A DNA stretch of 64,000 bases from Isurus oxyrinchus (Eukaryota). Every line of letters begins with the position of its first letter. Positions within the stretch are counted from its first letter, which is position 1. Below the pieces are notes generated by a model. The model was not told where the DNA came from, ran no database searches, and saw only the letters and a list, made by a program, of their open reading frames with translations. Shown here one piece after another: positions 2,016-54,297 of the stretch. The position numbers and the translations under genes are program-made. The stretch lies in assembly GCA_026770705.1 (NCBI GenBank), contig JANJGN010000007.1, positions 96,472,001 to 96,536,000 of the forward strand, read 5' to 3'.

Positions 2016-2419
2016 TGTTGCTGGAGATGCTTTAACATGTGCTGCCCTCTAATGGAGATTTGTGGTCTGTGTGAGCAGAATAAGCAAACGTGTGTCTCTT
2101 CAATCAATCTGACTGAAGTATCCTCACTGACCCAAGCTGCGCGACAATTTGACTCAGTTATGTCCGTTTTGTTTGGCTACCGCTTTACCCTTTGAGTTGT
2201 AGAATGCCACTACAACTGCAATACCCGTGCACAGTTGAGATGCAAAGCAAGTCGAAAGCCATCTTGATGCAGTGGATGTCTGCTAGGAGAATGCAGACCA
2301 GGGAGATCATGACATTCGGCAGTAGGCATCACAAACTTGCCGCCAACACTGGTATTTTGGAGCGCAACGGCCCAGCCAGCGCCCTATCTTAGGCATTATG
2401 CAGACAAACAGGCTTATAG

Positions 2420-2890
2420 CAGCATGTGGCCTTGTGGTGCAGCGGGTGATGTCCTTGGCAATAGTTCAGATCCAAGTCCCACTCCAGAACTTGATGTTCA
2501 ACGAAATGATCTAGAATATGGCCAGACTGGCCATCATCCAGCAGAATATTTCCAACAAATGCCAAGGGCATTGGGTAAAAGCAGGTGAGATTCCTGGTCA
2601 GCCACATGATGGGAAGAAAATCAAAGCCTTAACCATCATTATTGCCAGCTCCGAGTTAGAACATACATGTAAAATGCACGTTGTCATAACAAATCGGGCT
2701 CCTGGCGTGGTGTAGCAGTTGGCTCAGTTGGTTGGATGGCTGCTGTGGATCAGATTGGTCCCAGCAGTACAGGGTTCGATCCGTGCTGCCAGCTGACTTT
2801 CTGCCTTCCCCGTGATAGAGATCATGGCGTCGTGTGCTTGGTAGAGAACTGAAGAAGAAGGCAATATTTATAGGGATCATCAACTACTAA
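2420..2890 (+). mobile_element. Decayed tRNA-derived SINE remnants
   Basis: A-box/B-box-like heads (gtggtgcagcgggt...ccaagtcccactccaga; tggctcagttggt...gggttcgatcc) without a complete cloverleaf. Confidence 0.4.
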
Positions 2891-2899
2891 CTGATTAAT

Positions 2900-5800
2900 T
2901 GCTGGATGATTCTTTTCTGGCCGTTGCTACAATTCTACATGTTTCCATAATTGTTTCAAGCTTCAAGAGTCCAAATGGAGTGGCATGGCAGGTGCTTAAG
3001 TACTTAGGGCTGGGCTCAAGACTCCTGCACAACCAATTCCTCCCAGTCCTCCTCTTACGAGTAAAGAATGACTTGGAGAATGAGAAGACGCCACTGAGAG
3101 CATACTGCTAGAAACGGGAGGAGGGAGAAAATCTCTCGACAGAAGGTCATAGTTCCCCAAAGTGTTCAGGGAGTGCTTGTTTCTCTGTGAAAAACAGTGT
3201 AAGTGATATAGATGATTCACGAAGGAGTTCCCCACTGAAATGTGCCAAGTGTTGCCACCACAACTGCAAGATCAGAGGAGGGGAATTGCCACATTGGCAA
3301 TGGCTGAGGGTGGTGATAAATTTTGATGCATCTGTATCCTTCAAAGCTAGAGCTGGAGTTCTTAATAACTTTTTGCTGTACACAGTTGCATGTGTGAAGT
3401 CACTGAAGTTTTTATTTAAAGAGTGTCAATTTCATTTCAGAGGCAATCTGGCGGAGTGAGCACGAGGGTTTCCGACTTCCCTATGTCTATGCACGCACAT
3501 TGTTCAGAATTCCAGTCCCTCAACATTCAGTTCGTGCGGAACCTTAGGGAATACATCATATATATCAATGCTGGTATATTGATAGCAGTCATGATGCTTT
3601 CATTTTGTGGCAGTCTGCTGTGCCAGCTGTATTTCAGCCAGTAGGGGAAACCAAAGCATGGCTATTACCATGAACTATCTACTAGGCCATGGTTCAAGAC
3701 TCTGGTTCACAGCCCATGCACATTTTCATAACATGCATACAATGAGAACCATGCTGCGCAAGAAATGTGATAGGGTCACCACTCGTGTGCTTATGTAACA
3801 ATTCCATTGCTAGATTTATAGAGTTGCCTTGCAGTATTTAACTACGAATGACTCAATCTTCTTGGTAATATGCTGCGCAACTTTGCCATCTTGAAATGAC
3901 AGCCCTTGCCACCAATTATCAGACTAGTGGCTGACGAGCAAAATCACAGGGAGTGGAAGAAGGACGAGAAAGGAGAGCAAGAGAGGCAGCAATCTAGATA
4001 ACCATTTTCTCCCCATGCTTAACGTGAAGAACTTATTTCAATGCATTACCTATAATTTGAACCACAAATCCCCATTTATCACAGTTTCAAATTCCACATG
4101 GCGCATACTTCACTGAATGGCATATAATTCCCTTGGCCATAGCACAAACATAAAAGTCATCACAAAATACATATGTCAAACCGAATTTATAGATTAATTC
4201 ATGTCATAATGCACACAAACATAAGCCTAATCACTCTTCTGCGTTTCTCTAATGCCTGCCCTGTTAGTAACTTTGCCTGTGCTTCCAGCTTCAATGATAT
4301 CCCAATTGCTGCGCAAGGCTGGTGAAAGTTATTGATTTTGTCTGCAAGACACTGCAGATGGACGACCTTGAGCAGCTCTGAAGCTTGAAGACCCTACTTC
4401 AGATTGCTCCATCTAGGCATGGGTGCCAGAAGCCCTGGGCTAGCTGGCAGACAGGCAACAGCATGGTCACTGTCAGATTGGAAGGAACTGGAGGACGAAT
4501 GCTGCCATCCTGAAATAGAGTAGCAGGTTCTTGCTCGCTGGAGCCTGTCTCCGAGGACAATTCAATATTCCTAGTAATCTATTGGAGGAAATGTTTTTGC
4601 ACTGCTGCAATACCCTGCAAAGCCTTCCGTACTTTGATTGATGTCAGCAGTCTGACTCTGAGTCTAACCCTGAGGGTTAGCAAGCTAAGCTTGCTTGAGA
4701 ACAAAACAAAAATAAAAATACCTGGAAAAACTCAGCAGGAAGAGTCATACAGACTCGAAACGTTAACTGTGTTCCTCTCTACAGATGCTGCCAGACCTGC
4801 TGAGTTTTTCCAGGTATTTTTATTTTTGTTGCGGGTTTCCAGCATCTGCAGTTTTTTGTATTTTGCTTGAGAATAATCTCGGCGTACATGGCAGCAAATT
4901 GACATTGCATGACTTCAATCTAACCATCAGTGCAGAGGTTCTAGTGTTAGTGGAGACTGCTGATTTGTCAATGGAAGTTGTGACATCACCCAGCAAGCAA
5001 TGCATCATTTTTGGATCCATGACTATGCTGTTAGAGTTGACGCTACTTTCATGCTGGAAGGAATGAGCACCAAACTCTGCACAGCGCTGAGACAAGTTGA
5101 CACCAGAATCCTCCATGTTCCTTGACACTGATTGCATTCTACTTGGCGTCCTGGTACACCAAGCATTTCGTTGTGTATACCCACCAGCCTCCTTCTGTAG
5201 CCTGAACAATCAAAGTCTTCATTTGACTCCTCTACCGCTGATCGTGTATGTGATCTTAACATTCACTGAGCTGGTTCTTGTGCTATCCTTGCCTTCTGCC
5301 CTGGCTGTAGCCCATGCAAGCCCAGTATCTCACTGCAAGCAGATTCTGTCTCTAACCCATCCTCCAAGGCAAGCACGATGTCAATTTCCATGCTGGTGGC
5401 TGCCAGTGTGTAATCAAGCAAATGGTGCTGTGTTTTCATAATTACTATCTCATAGCTATTCCCCCATCGCATTGTCAGCTTGTATCTCCGAGGTATCTGA
5501 AAGGGAAAAGGCGCATAGACAAGGCTGTGCTGCGAGAAGGAACAGAAAGGTAAGTGTTACATGGTTACACCATCTGCAGCTTGTAAGATGGAGCAGATTG
5601 TGGGATGGGGGATGTCAGAAGGAGGGTCAGCATGATGTGCCATCATCTTCAAGACATTCAGTCCTGTACCCGATCCAGCCAGCATCATTTGCTCCACGGG
5701 CTTTACTGCATCATTCGCCCTCTTGTTAGTTCCTGGTGCCTTTGGTTTTGGACCACATTCACCTTCAAGACAAAGTGCGCCAATAAATACTGTGCAGTAT

Positions 5801-9310: not shown

Positions 9311-12300
9311 TGTCTCAGGTATTTACTAAAAGGGTGAAGCCACAAGGTAAATAGGTAAAATCAAAAGAATTTTACTGAACAGAATCAAAAATATGAATAC
9401 TGATAACGATACTCTAACTTAAATAGTCAGCTACATTAAATTTATTAAAAGTACAATGAACACAGTTACTTATACTCTAAATCAAACTTCTTATCTCAAC
9501 TCTCCTTCTACATGCATTTGACTTATATTGCCAATCACTCAGGTCAGAATTTGACGGATTAACTTCTTGGTCTAAGTAGTCATTCAAACACTCATGTAAT
9601 TACTGAGATTTCTTGGGCCTTCTACTTACTTCAGGCAATGTTTTCCCTTTAAATATCCTCCAGCTGTCTCACAGTTGTAAACACCCTTTCAAAGCACCAC
9701 TGGTGTCTTAAGCATAGCTACCTTGCATCAGAACTCTCCTGGTTCTAATGTTCTCTGGAGTCCTGTATCTATGAACTATTTCTATCGTTCTTCTCAGGTT
9801 GGCTATTACAGAAATCCAACCCATTGTTAGTAGAAACATTTTGTTTTCAAAGTTTTTTTTAAAAATTTCAGCCAGTACACACAGAATTTCAGCTGAATCC
9901 TGCTTGAAATAAATGTTCCTCTTGGCCAGCTTGTTCTAAACTAAACCCAATCTCATTGAACACAGAACAACACCTAGGGACATACTCACCCTCATAGTTA
10001 ACTTTGAATTGACCTTTTTTATTGTTTCTCTCTGAGGCAAGTTGGTCCCATGAGCATTTACTGGGAGAAAGGTGCTTTAGCTGAAATCTTTCAGAGAAAC
10101 ATAATTTTTGAAGGGGGTAATCATCCTAACATAAAACATCCTTATTTTCTCCAAAAGACCATTGGCCATCATAATGTATATAAATGGACAAAGCGTTGGC
10201 AATACGTTCAGTGAGCTACAAGCATGAAGTTGATGTTCTTCAGCTTTGACCTTCACAACACACCCTCGAACATCAGGTTTGGAACAAGAAAACTAGCACA
10301 CAGAGACCAAGGTTGCAGTTGGCTTTTAACCTGCCTTTTTGTGTATTCTTGGAAGGGGAAAGAACAAATGCCCATTTCACCAAGAAACTGTTTTCTGTCA
10401 ATTCACATCCTGTCCACAGTCTGGGATATAACGAACAGGAAATGGTTTCCACTGAGATGGTAATCAGCCTTCATTATCTCCACAACCACAAGAAATTATA
10501 GTTCAGTTTTTGAATTGCATCTGTTCCTTTGACGTGTCTCTGTCCAAAGCAGACCTTGAAAGCTTTTTAGGTGCGCCATTCTCTTCCCTGGACTAGTCAA
10601 GTCTAATTCTCATAGGGATTTTCCAGCAAGTGATCACTTTACAGTCTCTGTCAGTTTTTGTGTTTTCTTTTTTATCAAACACGTCTTACGTAAAAGTTCA
10701 ATATGTCCATAAGTAATTTGGGGCTATGATCTGTGGTCATGACACTTCCCCACACAATGAATTAAATGAGATTCATTCAACAAAGGTAGAATAAAATTAA
10801 ACATAATGTAACAAATACACACACATATTCATTCACTAAGGCTTGGTCACTGTTATCCCTTCAGTTCTAACCGAGTCTCTTTAAGTTCTGGACAGGGTAT
10901 CTGCAATCAAATTTGATTTCCCAGAAATGTGGGTGACTTTAAGATGGCATGGTTGGAGAAGCAAATTGTATCTTAACCATTTCCACAAAAGTTAACAGGT
11001 TGTAGCCAGTATAGACTGTGGTCTCTCTGTATCCATTTTGGACATATTTCTCAAAGTGTTTGAGAGCCAGTAATAAACTGAGCATTTCCTCCTCTACTGC
11101 GGAGTACCATTTTTGATGCTTGTTTACTTTTTTGGAGATTGGTCTCTCCACCTCTTAATCATCTTCCTGGAGGAGGACAGCCCCTACCCTGATGCCACTC
11201 ACATCAATGGCTACTTTAGGTGCTTGATTAAAGTATGGAGCTGCAAGCATAGAGGATGAATGATCTCAGGGATGTCGCCAGTGTGTAGCAACCATCTCAT
11301 CACTATAAACTCATACTCACAAGCCTATCACACATCCACTGGCATTTCACTCATTGCCAGCTCAGATGACATCACAACTCACTCTCTCACACATACCTTT
11401 ACATCTCTATCAATTCAACATGATGTCCGCACCGCCCCCCACCCCGCGCAACCCCCCCCCCCCCACAACAAAATAACGCAATTGGCTAAACCCACCACTA
11501 CATGTTTCATCAGGCATCAGGCTTTGAAAGCTGGCTGGGGCATTTCGCAGTCTACACGCCATGACTCAACACTGGTATAACCCATCGGGAGTTAAGGAGG
11601 AGATTTCCTTCACACAGGCAGTCAAGGGAATATGCCAGTATCCATTGAGTAGATCTATCTTTGTAATGTAGGCTGATTTACATACATTTTCAATGCCATC
11701 TTCCAGGTGGGGTATCAAGTAGGAGTCAGCTCGGGACACTGCATTAATGCTTCGGTAGTCAATGCAGAATCTTGTGAAGCCATCCGGCTTGGGCATGAGC
11801 ACAACTGGCGAGCTCCAGATGCTGTTGCTAGGCTATATTAGTTGGTGCTCTAGTTCAATGTGGGCCTCACCTACACCTCCCTCCAATTAACCCCCACTGC
11901 TATCCTTATCCTCAATGTCAGTGACATTGAGACAGACCATTACCTGCTTGTCCCCTTCTCGGCTATGATATTGCTTTATCATGTCGACATGATAAAACCT
12001 TTACTTTTTCCAGGATCTGGGGCCTCAGTTAGACAGCTTACTTCCCTGAGCTTCTTTACTACTCTGGACAGGCCAGTGAACCAAGCTTTTAAGGGTTCAC
12101 CTGTTATTGGTAGTCATGGACAACTCCAGGCACTTTCTCCTACAGCTGTTCTGTCTTCCTGACCTCAATGGGCTTCTCTGAGACCAACGCAGATACAATT
12201 ACCTTTAATCCCACGAGGTCATTGCCGAGAAGAATGTCAACCCGGTCCACAGGGAAACTGGGGACGACTCCCATGGTCACATGGTTCCCACACAAGATCG

Positions 12301-39024: not shown

Positions 39025-40735
39025 AAAAGTGGGGCCAGAGTGCAGATGAGAAGGATGATGTAGGTATAGAAATCAGGGAGGGGGACTGTGATATACTTGA
39101 ACAAATTAGCATTGAAAGGGCGGAGGTATTAGTGGTATTAGCAGGCTTAAGAGTGGATAAATCCCCAGGCCCAGATGAAATGTATCTCAGGCTGCTATGT
39201 GAGGCAAGGGAAGAGAACGCAGGGGTCTGACACCAATTTTCAAATCCTCTCTGGCCACAGGAGAGGTGCCAGAGGACTGGAGGACAGTGAATGTGGTACC
39301 ATTATTCAAGAAGACTAGCAGGGAAAAACCAGGTAATTACAGGCCAGTGAGTCTAACATCAGAGGTAGGGAAACTTTTGGAAAAATCCTGAGGGACAGGA
39401 TTAATCTCCCTCACTTGGACAGGCAGAGATTAATCAGGGATAGTCAGCATGGCTTTGTCAGGGGTTGGGGGACAAGTCTAACAAATTTCATTGAATTTTT
39501 CGAGAAGGTGACTAGTTATGTAGATGAGGGTAATGTAGTTGATGTAGTCTACATGGACATCAGTAAAGCTTTTGACAAGTTGTTGCATGGGGAAATGGTC
39601 AAGAAGGTTAGAGCCCATGGGATACAGGGCAATTTGGCAAATTGGATCCAAAATTTGCTTAGTGGCAGGAGGCAGAGGGTGATGATCGAAGGTTGTTTTT
39701 ATGATTGGAAGCATGTGACAAGTGGTATACCGCATGGATCGGTGCTGGAACCCTTGCTGTTTATAGTGTGCATGAATGATTTAGACATGAATGTAGGAGG
39801 TATGACCAGTAAGTTCGCAGATGACATAAAAATTGGTGGTGTCATAAATAGTGAGGAGGAAAGCCTTAGAAGACAGGGCAATATAGATGGGCTGGTGACA
39901 TGGGCAGAGCAGTGGCAAATGGAATTTAATCCTGAGAAGTGTGAGGTGAAGCATTTTGGGAGGACTAACACAGCAAGGGAATACGCAATGAATGGTAGGA
40001 CCCTAGGAAATACAGAGGATCAGAGGAACCTTGGTGTACGTGTCCATAGATCCCTGAAGGCAGTAGCACAGATAGATAAAGTGGTTAAGAAGGCAAATGG
40101 GATACTTGCCTTTATTAGCTGCAGCATGGAATACAAGAGCAGGAAGATTATGTCAGAGCTATATAAAATGCTAGTTATGCCACAGCTGGAGTACTGTGTG
40201 CAGTTCTGGTTGCCACACTATAGGAAGGATGTGATTGCACTGGAGAGGGTGCAGAGGAGATTCAAAGGATGTTACCTGGGCTGGAGCGTTTCAGCTATGA
40301 AGAGAGACTGGATTGGCTAGGGCTGTTTTCCTTTGAGCAGAGAAGGCTGAGGGGGGACCTGATAGAGGTATAAAAAATTATGAGGGGCAAAGGTAGGGTA
40401 GATAGGAATAAATTTTTCCCCTTAGTGGAGGTGTCAATAACCAGGCAGCATGAATTTAAGGTAAGGGGCCAGAAGTTTGGAGCGGATTTGAGGAAACAAT
40501 TTTTTCACCCAGAGGATGATTGGAATCTGGGACTGGCTGCATGAGGGGGTGGTAGAGGCAGGAACCCTCACAACGTTAAGAAGTATTTAGATGAGCACTT
40601 GAAACGCCATTGCTTACAGGGCTACGGGCCAAGTGCTGGAGAATGGGATTAGAATAGATAGGTGTGTAATGGCTGGCATGGACATGAAGGGCTGAAGGGC
40701 CTGTTTCTGTGCTGTATAACTCTTTGATTCTATGA
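39025..40735 (+). mobile_element. CR1 LINE, 5'-truncated, with 301-aa RT ORF remnant
   Basis: SQHGFVRG...VDVVYMDISKAFDK...SGIPHGSVLEPLLF...KFADDIKIG...LEYCVQFW; CR1 3' tail at about 40700-40735. Confidence 0.92.
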
Positions 40736-47100: not shown

Positions 47101-48900
47101 GAAGCAGGCCTGGGCTGATAAGTGGCAAATAACATTTGTATCACACAATTGCCAGGCAATGACCATCTCCAACAATGGAGAATGTGACCATCTCCAACAT
47201 TGGAGAATGTAACCATCTCCCCTTCATTTTCAATGGCATTACCATCACTAAATCCCCTACTATCAAAATCCTGGGGTTACAATTGACCAGGAACTGAACT
47301 GGACCAGCCATATAAATACTGCGGCTACATGAACAGGTTAGAAGCTGGGAATTCTGTGATGCGTAACTCACCTCCTGACTCCCCAAAAGCATGTCCATCA
47401 TCTACAAGGCATAAATCAAGAGTGTGAATGAAATACTCTGCTTTTGCCTGGATGACTGCAACTCCAACAACACTTAAGAAGCTTGACACCATCTAGGTCA
47501 AAGCAGCATGCTTGGTTGGCACCCCATCCATCACCTTCAACATTCACTTTCTCCACCACCGACACACAGTGGCAGCAGTGTGTACCATCTACAAGATGCA
47601 CTGCAACAACTCACAAAGGCTCCTTTGACAGCACCTTCCAAACACCCAATCTCTGCCACCTAGAAGGACAAGAGCAGCAGGTACATGGGAAAACCACCAT
47701 CTGCAAGTTCCCCTCCACGCCACACGCCATCCTGACTTGGAAGTATATCACCGTTCCTTCAGGGTCGCTGGATGAAAATCCTGGGACTCCCTCCCTAACA
47801 GCACTGTGAGTGTACCTAAACCACATGGACTGCAGCGGTTCTACAAGGCAGCTCACCACCATCTTTTCAAGGGAAATTAGGGATTGGCAATAAATACTGG
47901 CATGGCCAGAGACACCCACATCCCATGGAAGAATTTTTAAAAAGCACCTGACCTTCAAACTCTGTTTGGACTGTCTATTAAATGTATTAACATTTAACAG
48001 TAGCACAGTTCATTTACTTAATTTCCAATGAGACATTTGTTATGGTGACCGCTCACCCACAGGGGAAGAATCAGAATGGGGTTCAGCCTTGTACATCTGT
48101 CCTTCACAACCCAGCAGCCATATCAAGGACACTGCTATCAGAGGCCTGAGACCTGGTTCCCCTCATTTCTTCTGCCCTGGGAAACCTTTATGGATGTAAA
48201 ATACAAGCTACCATTTTCTTCTGAAAAATGTAAGTTCAAAAGCACTGGCTGGTTACACCACAGTCCAAAGAACTTAGTTGTAAATTTGGATTTAACTAAT
48301 GTTCACATTAACAAAGCAAAAATGGTGAACATTTTTCTTCAACTTTACAACAGGAATTTAAAGATTATTTATAAAATGAAAGCAAAAACTGCGGATCCTG
48401 GAACTGTTAAGGAGAATTAGGCTTGAAACATTAAACCTGTTTCTCTTTCCACAGATGTTGCCAGACAACCGGAGGAGTTTTTTCCAGCACTTTCTGCTTT
48501 TATTTATAGAGAGGTCCATTTTCCTCTGTGTCAGTGAATAGAAAGGAAATCCACCCTCTATTTTACAGACAACAACTTTGTCATTAAATTTTGGCAAATT
48601 TGGGGATACATAATGAACTTTACTAGGGTTTAGAGGGTTAATCTGAGGCCAGTTTATACTTTGCTTTTTAAGTAAACAATTTTGAACTTCCATTAGTCTT
48701 CACAGACTGGTCAGTGCACACACAAAGTTCTGACCCCATGATGACCAGCAATGCTACTTATACAGAGATCACACTGAACTGGAACATTGCATATACTGGA
48801 CAAAAAACAACTTCCATGGATAGAGCCAGTTAAAAACTGGATAAAGCTAGGAGAGAGAACAGCAATTTCACTTTTTTTCTGCAAAACCAGCATTGATCAT

Positions 48901-51900
48901 TGTAGTAATTATGCTTTTGTTAAATGTTGGACTGTACCTTTAAGAATAGGCATGTAATGTAAGATCACATGATCTGTATAAACCAATGTGTTAGCAGTGT
49001 AGAGATAGAGATGGAGTCGAAAGCACATGTTAGTTGCTGCTGGCTGTATTGTAAATAAACCTAATGCTTCCATTTAGAAAGGTACCTGCAGATCAACTCC
49101 ACTACAAATGGGCGACTCAACCATGCTATAACAAACTGGTGATGAGAATAAACTAGGATAAATCAAGATAAATCAGAATCAGTACTGTACCTCGTCCAGC
49201 GAATGTGATCATTTAAAATAACAGAAGATATACTCACCCAAAATGCCACACAATTTGGTAGAATCAATCCCTTGAGTCAGCCATTTGTCTCAGTATATAT
49301 ATAGTTCTATATACTGAGAAAAGGCAAGCAAACCTCTGGGGTTCTTGTGAGAGCAAAACCTACAGTTTGATTCAAAGTTTGATGGCACCCAGTCCCCCAG
49401 ATTCAAAGGATTTTGGAGAATTGGTGGACCTCATGAAGGAACATTTTCAACCCAAGCCCTCAGTCATGATGCAGAGGTTCCAGTTTAATTCATGAAATAG
49501 AGCCCCAGGTGAGACAATTGCCAGCTATATGGAAAATTTGAAGAAACTAATGGAACATTGTGAGTTCAGTGAGACTCCAAACGACATGCTCAGAAATCAT
49601 TGTGTGTGGTGTGAAAAAAGACACTATTCAGAGAAGATTGCTGGCTGGAGTGAATCTGGATTTTAAGGAGGCATTAGAAATAGTGCTGGCCATGGAAAGT
49701 GCTGTAAAGATTCACAAGCAATACAAGGGGCCCAAAATGGCGCAGTACCAAATATCGGGTGGGAACAGTCAGCTGCAAATGGCACGAAAAACTCCACCGT
49801 GAAGCGGGAAACAGCATCCCCCCCACCACTAACCAAAAGAAAGAAAAAAAGATTTAGCAGCTAAATCGAAGAACAACTTTAATCGATATGGAAACAATGT
49901 CTTCTAGTGGCTGGCAGTTTAAGAAAATAGAAGGTTACTTTTGTCACAGAAATATACATATAATGAGATAGCGCAAAGAGAGATTTAAACTGGCTTGCAA
50001 ACAACAGAAGAAGCCCAATGAAATCTACAGCGTAGAAGAGCCTGAAGCAACACATTCTGACATCTATTCATTGTTTAACATGAAAGCTGGGAAGACAGCC
50101 AACATTTGTTATAGTACAAGTGAGTAGTAAACCAGTAAAAATGGAAGTAGACATGGGAGCTTCCAGTACTGTAATTGCAGAACAAAACTTCAGATATTTA
50201 AATAATGGGAAACATCAATTAAATTTAGAAAAAAACATCTGCCAAGCTGAAAATGTACACAGGCAAAGAAATCCAAGTAAAAGGTATCAGCAGAGTAACT
50301 GCCCATTATAGAAACCAATCGGCACAGCTATCAGTGATGGTAGTGAGATGCAGAGGACCAAGCCTTCTAGGGTGAATCTGATTAAGGGAAATCAACCTGG
50401 ATTAGCCAGTGAGATTTCAAAAGGAAGCTGGAAGATTTCACTTCTTGAAAAAGGAACAAGGCAAAGTATAGCAGAAAGAGCCCGGAGATTTCAAGGACCA
50501 CAACAGGATGAAAAAGAAGTGTATAAGGATTCAATAACCTGACGAAATGCAGTCTATCTCAAACAAAAACATGGAAGAGCAGCAGAAGAAGCTCAAGGAA
50601 ACCCTGCTGAATGACAGAGGTCAAGGCAAAGTGAGTAGCCTTTGCAAGGAAAAGGAAAACCTGTTAAAAAAAACCTTCACACACAACATGATTCCCTCAG
50701 GTCAAAGTTTGTGCCTCTGGAACAATACGAAGAGAAACAGAAAGAATTCAGCACCTCTCTGAACAAACTGAAGAACCAGTTGGTAGAGAAGACACAACAA
50801 TGTTCAATTTTCCAGGAGGCAGCCAACAAATACAACAAAGAGACAGAAGGGCTGAAGAATTTGGCTAAATGAAGCCAAAGAGGCTTTGAAAACAAACATC
50901 GGAGACCTTTCCAAGAGGCAAGCAGATAATGAAGTTTTGAAGACTCATCTACTGAACAAGTTGAGATTTCACCTGAGAGAACTCTGGCCAGCAGTGAAGT
51001 CAAAATGAAGAACAAGACCAAACTCTGCAATAGAAAGAAGACAAAAGGGAAGAAAGTTCTGAAAAGACAACAAAATAGTGGCTAGTAGCACCTATAAACA
51101 CACAAAGGAGGCAATAAACAAATTACCGAACTGTGCCTGCTTCGATATTATTCCAGTCCCAATGGTTTGCTGGATGATGATGCTGAAGAGAAAATCAGAG
51201 AGGTACAAGTTACTTCCAAAGCCTTCTCAGGAAAGAATACTAAATGCTATATAGACAAATATGAAGAAGTTAACAGGGGACTTGTTGGAGACCAAGCATG
51301 CACGCTTTCTTTTCCACTACAAAATGACCCCCCACATGACAACAGGAGCAACACCTGCAGAATTGTTGATGAGACGCCATCTTAGGACAAGGCTGAGCCT
51401 ACTATTTCCAAATTTGGAGGGGAAGGTGGATAAGAGTCAAGGAAATCAAAAAGCTACACATGACTTGCATAGTCGTGAAAGACAATTTACTGTCGGAGAA
51501 GCAGTATATATAAAGAATTTCGTGGAGGACCAAAGTGTTTACTGAGTAAAGTAAGTTCAGTGACCAGACCATTATCATACCATGTGGAAGTGGAAGGCTG
51601 GATCACCCGTAAGCATGTGGACCATTTAAGAAAAAGAGATACCACAAGATATGGTTCCACCTGTAAACATTACTGAACCAGCGTTTCCTGTTGAAGGTGC
51701 TCAACCAAGGACTGACATGTCTGATGTCTCTTTCAGAGTGGAAGGCAGTAAACTGCAAATGCCCACTGAGGTACCTGAGGTTCATGCAGTTCCAGAGAAT
51801 GTGGTTCCTGGAAAAGAACCTGAAGTCATGGAGCTGCGACATTCCACACGGATCAGGAAACCATCTGAAAGACTGAACTTGTAAATTTCATGACCTGTGT

Positions 51901-52225
51901 AAATATTATAATGTCATGAGATAAATATACTTGTAAATACAGTATGTACAGCAAAGTTAAAGGGGAGGAGTGTAGTAATTACGGTTTTGTCAATGTCAGA
52001 CTGTATCTTTACAAATAGTCTTGTGATGTAAGATCACATGATCTGTGTAAACCAATGTGTTAGCAGCGCAGGCTACCGCCACTGTCAGTGTAGAGAGAGA
52101 GGTGGAGTTGAAAGCACATGTGTAGTTGCTGCTGGCTGTACTGTAAATAAACCTAATGTTTCCACTTAGAAAGTTATCTGCAGATCAACACTATTACAAA
52201 TAGGCAGCAAAGCCACACTACAACT
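48901..52225 (+). mobile_element. Gypsy LTR retrotransposon with both LTRs, non-autonomous (RT/RNaseH absent)
   Basis: LTRs 48901-49133 and 51971-52225 (TGTAGTAATT...). PBS-like tggtgatgag at 49137. PPT aaaggggaggag. TSD atcat/gtcat. gag QPKPSVMMQRFQF...IQRRLLA, protease MEVDMGAS, integrase C-terminus RFLFHYKMTPHMTTGATPAELLM. Confidence 0.9.
50430..51000 (+). pseudogene. UACA: Captured host coiled-coil coding fragment resembling UACA
   Basis: MQSISNKNM...ETLLNDRGQGKVSSLCKE and KKNLHTQHDSLRSKFVPLEQYEEKQKEFSTSLNKLKNQLVEKTQQCS...ETEGLK align by eye to the recalled UACA coiled coil (KKELDTIQECIKVKYAPIVSFEECERKF...LKDQLSEQTQKYS). Frameshifted. Confidence 0.6.
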
Positions 52226-52499
52226 GTCATCAAATTAAATTTATTTTAATATCTAAATCACATGCAAAAATAGTTGAAGACAGCATTCGTATCAAAATTT
52301 AACACATTCCTGTGAAAATGTTACTTTACAACAACATCAACTTACATTTATACAGTGCCTTCAATGTAAAAAAAAAAATCCAAAAATGCTTCATCCAACA
52401 AAAATGGGCACCAAGGCAGAAACAGAGATAAAGATGGGATGATGCAAAGTTTGGTCAATGAGGTGGATTTTAAAAGGGAGAAAGAGGTTGAGAGGTTTA

Positions 52500-53951: not shown

Positions 53952-53962
53952 CCCAACAGCAA

Positions 53963-54297
53963 ACTCACCAAGGCTCCTTCGACAGCAGCTTCCAAACCCA
54001 CCACCACTCCCACCCAGAAGGAGAAGGGCAGCAGGTACATGGGAACACCACCACCTGGAAGTTCCCCTCCAAGCCAGTCAGCACCCTGGCTTGGAAATAT
54101 ATCATTGTTCCTTCACTGTCGCTGGATCAAAATCCTGGAACTCCCTTCCTAACAGCACTGTGGGTGTACCTACACCACATGGGCTTCAGTAGTTTAAGAA
54201 GGCAGCTCACAACCACCTTTTCAAGGACAATTAGGGATGGACAATAAATGCAGACCCAGCCAGCGAAACCCGCACCCCATAAATGAATTTGAAAAAA
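53963..54297 (+). mobile_element. LINE-B 3' end
   Basis: NSPRLLRQQLPNP...SWNSLPNS and the family tail. Confidence 0.75.

Follow-up and report, generated by a model that had tools for sequence, protein, structure and literature searches.

How does a fragment of a host coiled-coil gene come to lie in an LTR element, in the place where a reverse transcriptase would be expected, and how does such an element spread? This question is raised by positions 48901-52225 of the DNA analysed here (the window, 64,000 nucleotides of Isurus oxyrinchus), which hold an LTR element with a Ty3/Gypsy gag, protease and integrase tail, and without reverse transcriptase (RT) or RNaseH.

Layout of the element and identity of its insert

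The element, referred to here as the window copy of family A, and its flanks are composed of the following features:

48896..48900, no strand: left target-site duplication ATCAT (flank comparison; 5-bp duplications in other copies too)
48901..49133, + strand: 5' LTR, TG...CA, without 22 bases found in the 3' LTR (LTR alignment)
49137..49146, + strand: primer-binding-site-like TGG tract (same position in most family A copies)
49243..50095, + strand: gag, broken, Ty3/Gypsy, ends approximate (Gypsy polyprotein matches at 49304-49865)
50096..50417, + strand: aspartic protease, broken (Gypsy polyprotein and family comparison)
50418..50507, + strand: junction zone, weakly like both the R protease-RT linker and upstream UACA; switch point blurred
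50508..50859, + strand: UACA piece 1, host L030 2695-3047, about aa 909-1026, 71% DNA identity (host exon alignment)
50851..50957, + strand: UACA piece 2, host L030 3489-3595, about aa 1173-1209, 68% (joined to piece 1 via a 9-bp repeat)
50958..51070, + strand: segment Y, common to families A, B and C (cross-family alignment)
51071..51250, + strand: segment Z, found in A copies (family A alignment)
51251..51884, + strand: integrase core end and C-terminal tail, broken (Gypsy polyprotein match)
51959..51970, + strand: polypurine tract (sequence)
51971..52225, + strand: 3' LTR (LTR alignment)
52226..52230, no strand: right target-site duplication GTCAT (flank comparison)

The two LTRs are the same at 199 of 232 aligned bases (86%, K2P 0.16), with the 3' LTR terminating in CT and not CA. 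The TGG-starting tract is found directly past the 5' LTR, at 49137, and the purine tract of 51959-51970 precedes the 3' LTR. The flanking ATCAT and GTCAT match at four of five bases, just as a preliminary description of this DNA had reported. That description also called the two blocks, LTR to protease and integrase to LTR, intact; this is correct for the layout, but every reading frame is disrupted by stops and frameshifts, and the window copy is a dead, decayed member of its family.

The same description saw no RT or RNaseH between protease and integrase, and the comparison with P0029, a public Ty3/Gypsy polyprotein with the Pfam order protease-RT-RNaseH-integrase, agrees with it. P0029 aligns to the window solely at 49313-50402 and 51231-51637, and its residues 378-1097 (RT, RNaseH and most of the integrase) have no counterpart anywhere in the window element. 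The gag-protease frame of a sister copy, used as a query, retrieved 17 proteins at 28-36%, mostly full Ty3/Gypsy polyproteins. The gag, protease and integrase of family A are homologous to elements ordered protease-RT-RNaseH-integrase, and it is by this homology that the family, which has no RT, is assigned to Ty3/Gypsy.

Behind the protease, window positions 50508-50957 are two pieces of the large exon of UACA, which at the DNA level are about 70% identical to the host copy of the gene. This gene is located on contig C25, where a single 2.7-kb exon codes for residues 408-1315, its product being 98.8% identical to white-shark UACA and 94.9% identical to basking-shark UACA. The two pieces are joined by a 9-bp repeat (50851-50859) that is present at both host positions, with 450 nt deleted between them. 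UACA had been placed at 50430-51170 from the letters alone; profile, HMMER and DNA comparisons all support the identity, and reduce the extent to about 50508-50957. A profile built from seven open stretches of family A copies found three proteins among 7990 scored candidates, all of them shark UACA (E 9e-35 to 1e-26). The HMMER search of the whole library gave eight proteins, namely two named UACA (ray and bony fish), three short shark cassette gene models and three unnamed; UACA was expected to rank above RAI14 and ANKRD24, and neither of these two is named among the eight. A 77-aa frame of the window copy itself reaches 60% identity with UACA across 60 aa.

Searches with the insert against Pfam returned coiled-coil families only, below threshold, and the PDB matches were weak. 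A generic coiled coil, as a candidate for the insert, was dismissed by the specific UACA matches together with the DNA identity. Ninein was searched for in the window copy and not detected. Since the UACA piece lies within one exon, it gives by itself no proof of capture from RNA.

Family A and its sister family R

When the insert was used as a genome query, all 39 other scored places covered at least 672 of its 741 bases, at 84-87%; the 3737 first-look candidates of this query are candidates and not a copy number. The same protease and integrase ends border the insert in all 20 copies fetched, so that the genome-wide copies with common protease/UACA and UACA/integrase junctions anticipated by the preliminary description do exist, and a later independent insertion at the window locus, the other candidate considered for the insert, was dismissed on this basis. 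Both LTRs were located in 17 of 20 copies fetched with their flanks, and in those 17, allowing the ends to shift by 2, the target duplications match at five of five bases in 2 copies, at four in 5, at three in 7, and at fewer in 3. Family A copies are 80-85% alike.

Family A is therefore, by its many dispersed copies with a common internal structure and their own target duplications, a non-autonomous LTR family. RT, RNaseH and most of the integrase are absent, as had been proposed for the window element: a YxDD-type RT motif occurs in none of 20 A copies, compared with 8 of 16 copies of family R described below, and the RT, RNaseH and full integrase expected of an autonomous element were not found in family A. 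Two A copies on contig C19 (L010 and L015) are nearly identical in the cassette, probably by segmental duplication. In contigs of three runs, presumed to be RNA, the family A matches are mostly below 90% identity, and uninformative on the window copy; the contigs of two runs diverge from the window at 50434, a hint of relatives with another segment behind the protease.

Family R was reached by screening 20 RT loci and then 16 loci of one of the closest families, 36 RT loci in total. All 16 R loci contain RT-range sequence and match the A LTR (median 74%) and the A protease (74%), and the gag and the integrase tail match those of A in 12 (76%) and 13 (72%) of the 16, respectively. None of the 16 matches A's insert: the homology between R and A breaks off near 50417 and is found again from near 51255. 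Having the same LTR age, R is a contemporary sister of A, and judging from these matches would be the likely source of A's RT and integrase. A closer RT-bearing parent of A was not found among the 36 RT loci, R being about 74% alike to A versus the 80-85% between A copies. The RT query itself gave 32909 first-look candidates, this Gypsy lineage being very abundant in the genome.

Families B and C and the route of the cassette

The part of UACA that is absent from A, used as a query, found the host exon plus 155 further matches, 16 of which were fetched and define family B. These elements, of 3.0-4.6 kb, hold UACA sequence from exon bases 2050-3600, mostly at 75-86% and with common deletions, and have a TGG tract, a purine tract and LTRs of their own, unlike those of A; the 5-bp duplication is perfect in two of five copies. 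No match was found between B and the gag, protease or integrase tail of A, and when a profile built on 16 Gypsy polyproteins was compared with the B/C backbone, the best domain had an E of 0.6. The class of this backbone is established no further than LTR element, with short stretches that we take to resemble another Gypsy clade.

The cargo of B continues behind UACA with Y (about 95 bases), then about 270 bases of ninein, and then TPR. Ninein is a centrosome protein, and TPR a nuclear-basket protein. The ninein piece, with 74-81% DNA identity to a host exon on contig C19, lies within that single exon. TPR, whose host locus is on contig C16, was recognized by Pfam PF25481, over cut-off in four frames, and by PF07926, also over cut-off. 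At least five TPR exon pieces follow each other in host order without introns in all nine B loci tested; six introns are removed, with AG/GT ends at six exon-exon joins, whereas two joins farther along lie mid-exon. Because these TPR exons are intron-less, the RNA route, capture from spliced RNA, is shown in B. A short match is present at the ninein-TPR fusion point, and B frames run through both UACA-Y-ninein and ninein-TPR. The B/C subfamilies differ by common cargo deletions of 282, 426, 102, 210, 450 and 126 nt, plus a skip from UACA to ninein.

Two further observations concern these elements. One B copy (L039, G000:C21 near 104.07 Mb) is rearranged, with the UACA end and Y followed by an earlier UACA position, in two occurrences about 10 kb apart. 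Just upstream of UACA, B and C have a coiled-coil-like stretch (L044:3107-3400 and its equivalents) that is possibly further cargo, and which gave no match to the UACA, ninein and TPR host loci.

Subfamily C was found via a basking-shark gene model (P0005) that combines A's deletion with B-like residues, in a search with 12037 candidates and 150 scored matches. In all of its top 20 loci the UACA pieces abut at A's junction and the LTR or internal sequence of B is matched; Y is present in 18, a short ninein piece in 9, and the last TPR pieces in 18. None of the 20 matches A's LTR, gag-protease or integrase tail, nor P0029. A and C have in common the 450-nt UACA deletion, the 3' end and the following approximately 110 bases (Y), and the window aligns with C through the deletion junction, to about 51070. 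Y leads into ninein in B and C, and in A copies ends as a lysine/arginine-rich tail and a stop. In the search for its source, the own genome returned 149 repeat-like matches and no evident host exon, and the UACA, ninein and TPR loci gave no match, with 40 kb covered at the first of these. Segment Z and positions 50418-50507 had no significant match to the host loci, B or the RT-bearing loci, and against C their scores were barely above those of shuffles.

A tree of 51 sequences over 456 bases (the host, 20 A, 10 B and 20 C) places the A clade (100%, stem 0.21) nested with 19 C copies (100%), and these within B. The branch common to A and C is longer than the one common to A and B in 99.5% of bootstraps, with low support (51-57%) for any particular C branch as the sister of A. 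Identity to host UACA decreases from 82% in B to 80% in C and 71% in A. The median K2P of LTR pairs, the dating suggested in the preliminary description, is 0.19 in B (9 loci, chosen because they had pairs), 0.19 in C (11 of 20 loci), 0.125 in A (13 of 20) and 0.12 in R (10 of 16). Host identity, tree and LTR age are all in accord with the order host, B, C, A.

The preliminary description was right to suppose that UACA pieces may have spread through the genome, where A, B and C matches are found throughout; the direct transduction of host mRNA by this element, which it also proposed, was not supported. A capture of UACA by A itself, straight from a host transcript and with no part played by B or C, would require the deletion, the 3' end and the foreign segment Y each to have arisen on two occasions; Y, as mentioned above, was not found in the surroundings of the host gene. 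Such an origin would agree with the lack of detectable ninein or TPR in family A and with the nearly equal distance of single A copies to host and C (71.3% vs 71.6%), but because two breakpoints and a non-UACA stretch are common to A and C, and A nests inside C at 100% support, we regard a direct capture as very improbable.

What these data favour, with a probability of around 0.8, is that A is a Ty3/Gypsy family whose UACA cassette came by a template switch from an older LTR family, and which was likely copied in trans by R. The likely donor, going by the common breakpoints and the tree, would be C. Another route would be the reverse one, where C or B obtained the cassette from A, or one at the DNA level, with the cassette moving between integrated copies through ectopic recombination or gene conversion. 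Integrated repeats commonly recombine, and the 5' junction of A's cassette, at which no clear microhomology is seen, would suit such a route; the 9-bp match belongs to the UACA deletion. Reversal is opposed by the closer identity of B and C to the host, by the larger part of the exon that they keep, and by their older LTR pairs. As for the passage from C to A through DNA, a cassette of about 0.6 kb in place of pol fits template switching as set out in the available text of PMC5131818. Taken together, we consider these reverse and DNA routes improbable. The long stem of A in the cassette (0.21), the blurred 5' switch point and the lack of a source match for Y and Z indicate that intermediates may be missing.

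The mechanism favoured here, a template switch from C into a Gypsy element, would have started with one template switch after another onto host mRNAs that had been co-packaged, which gave B its UACA-ninein-TPR cargo. These switches may have been guided where purine-rich sequences encoding coiled coils match over short stretches, which would explain that the cargo is all coiled coil and in frame. Subfamily C would then have undergone the 450-nt UACA deletion at the 9-bp repeat, a deletion that is directly observed, and a switch between C RNA and Gypsy RNA would have placed the cassette behind the protease. A then spread widely, with the 5-bp target duplications seen in its copies, presumably using the RT and integrase of its sister R. 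For the most part, the cargo was probably carried along as a passenger, with a benefit being possible.

Selection on the cargo, age and known systems

Several features of the cargo could be read as signs of selection. In several A copies protease, UACA and Y form one stop-free frame of 234-298 aa, and one other copy has gag and protease in a single frame of 282 aa; in most of the A copies listed, the frame ends at the same place, after the lysine/arginine-rich tail. For each of the eight junction classes present in at least two copies, the most frequent offset preserves the frame. The dN/dS of the A stem is 0.39 (CI 0.21-0.77) versus 0.63 between copies, a difference that is not significant, being above zero in 7.8% of bootstraps; for C, copies were chosen by protein score, which lowers its dN/dS. 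Finally, the gag and protease of A are as near to outgroup polyproteins as those of R.

According to the alternative built on these features, the history would be the same, but the coiled-coil cargo would have been selected, as a Gag-protease-coiled-coil with a basic tail in A and a UACA-ninein-TPR fusion in B, aiding assembly or nuclear entry, or shielding from small-RNA silencing. However, among exact repeats 6-10 bases long within the host exon, 62-91% fall in frame per junction, so that microhomology alone, at about 0.75 in frame per junction, yields eight of eight by chance at about 0.1. The drop in dN/dS is not significant either, and the relative-rate test for relaxed selection of A vs R, which gave no difference in any region, does not discriminate, because the truncated integrase tail is conserved likewise. 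Moreover, the subfamilies freely lose different parts, and A has no detectable ninein or TPR. The evidence for purifying selection on the cargo is suggestive, and a function of the cargo, like the selected version of this history, seems to us possible and doubtful. A more far-reaching proposal, that shark LTR elements built an in-frame UACA/ninein/TPR coiled-coil accessory gene under selection, traded between unrelated families as a replication aid (a Gag-protease-fused scaffold, a nuclear-entry aid or a silencing shield), appears unlikely. Most likely, the cargo is a passenger, and its composition a reflection of short matches among purine-rich coiled-coil mRNAs. Being all coiled coil and in frame, it lets selection be tested directly against microhomology bias.

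The chimeras are not restricted to this species. Basking-shark gene models include an A-type (P0004) and a C-type cassette (P0005), and P0009, from the catshark Scyliorhinus torazame, has the UACA-Y-ninein join; the presence of the chimera in basking shark and catshark means that, barring horizontal movement, it is older than the divergence of the two shark orders. This divergence dates to about 170-190 million years ago. At a finer scale, the C copy L102 (G000:C3:164877156-164877686) encodes a protein 90% identical to basking-shark LOC144678955, compared with 60-74% for the other scored copies and 86% for L103, a near duplicate 33 kb from L102. By this identity, L102 and LOC144678955 would likely be an orthologous insertion older than the split of these two sharks; their divergence would be about 5% in DNA if neutral, with A LTR pairs about 2.5 times as different, a comparison that comes from one locus only.

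Shark proteins described as uncharacterized or hypothetical, such as basking-shark LOC144682709 and LOC144678955 and catshark scyTo_0001063, are retrotransposon cassettes. Shark genomes carry many decayed UACA, ninein and TPR fragments annotated as genes, which could yield small RNAs against the three host genes. A separate basking-shark gene model, P0042, joins a kinesin motor domain to a sequence that has 47% identity with a portion of the gag-protease of A.

Transducing retroviruses with v-onc genes have host sequence in place of pol, fused behind gag, and depend on a helper. In comparison, the shark element has no env, its cargo shows no evidence of action on the cell, and its spread in the germ line was long. 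Gene capture by LTR elements is known, and the new part is that the cargo passed between families and was then amplified this widely. A plant parallel is maize Bs1, in the available part of its description (PMC13317346) an LTR element in which segments taken from three host genes form a chimeric reading frame; those come from three unrelated enzymes/transporters, whereas here three long coiled-coil genes of a vertebrate are involved, with many subfamilies, and part of the cargo moved to a second LTR backbone. In animals, the sections consulted of Tan et al. 2016 (PMC5131818) describe LTR capture guided by microsimilarity, including the mouse four-gene 'Super' retrocopy. Those retrocopies resemble the shark chimeras in having pieces of host mRNA in LTR elements, microsimilarity at the joins, several parents, and cargo in sense and in frame, but as described there they are few young loci per genome, and the shark chimeras are old, widely amplified families, one of which passed its cargo on. 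Chong et al. 2014 (PMC4299795), within the portion at hand, report the crocodilian CrocERV29 (KIT-ligand) and CrocERV31 (nectin3), with 6-9 copies. They are likewise LTR elements of vertebrates that took up host mRNA and then went on to replicate, with a capture that predates species splits and, for nectin3, the replacement of a viral gene; however, according to the same portion they are ERVs with one gene each and whole ORFs under significant purifying selection, in contrast to the Gypsy element, gene fragments, hundreds of scored matches and non-significant selection found here.

In the literature, no report was found of shark retrotransposons that captured UACA, ninein or TPR, and the families may already be catalogued (Repbase, Dfam). 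They represent a vertebrate case where serial gene capture can be traced stepwise, from host to B, C and A, with many dated copies, and indicate that captured host sequence can move between LTR families.

Elsewhere in the window, positions 11515-11823 (- strand) hold the remnant of another, RT-like sequence, with 34% identity to residues 460-564 of P0029, and 39337-40317 (+ strand) a stop-free frame of 327 codons, presumably a LINE RT fragment. The region of the element is itself flanked by a 300-base direct repeat (47608-47907 and 53962-54261), 83% alike.
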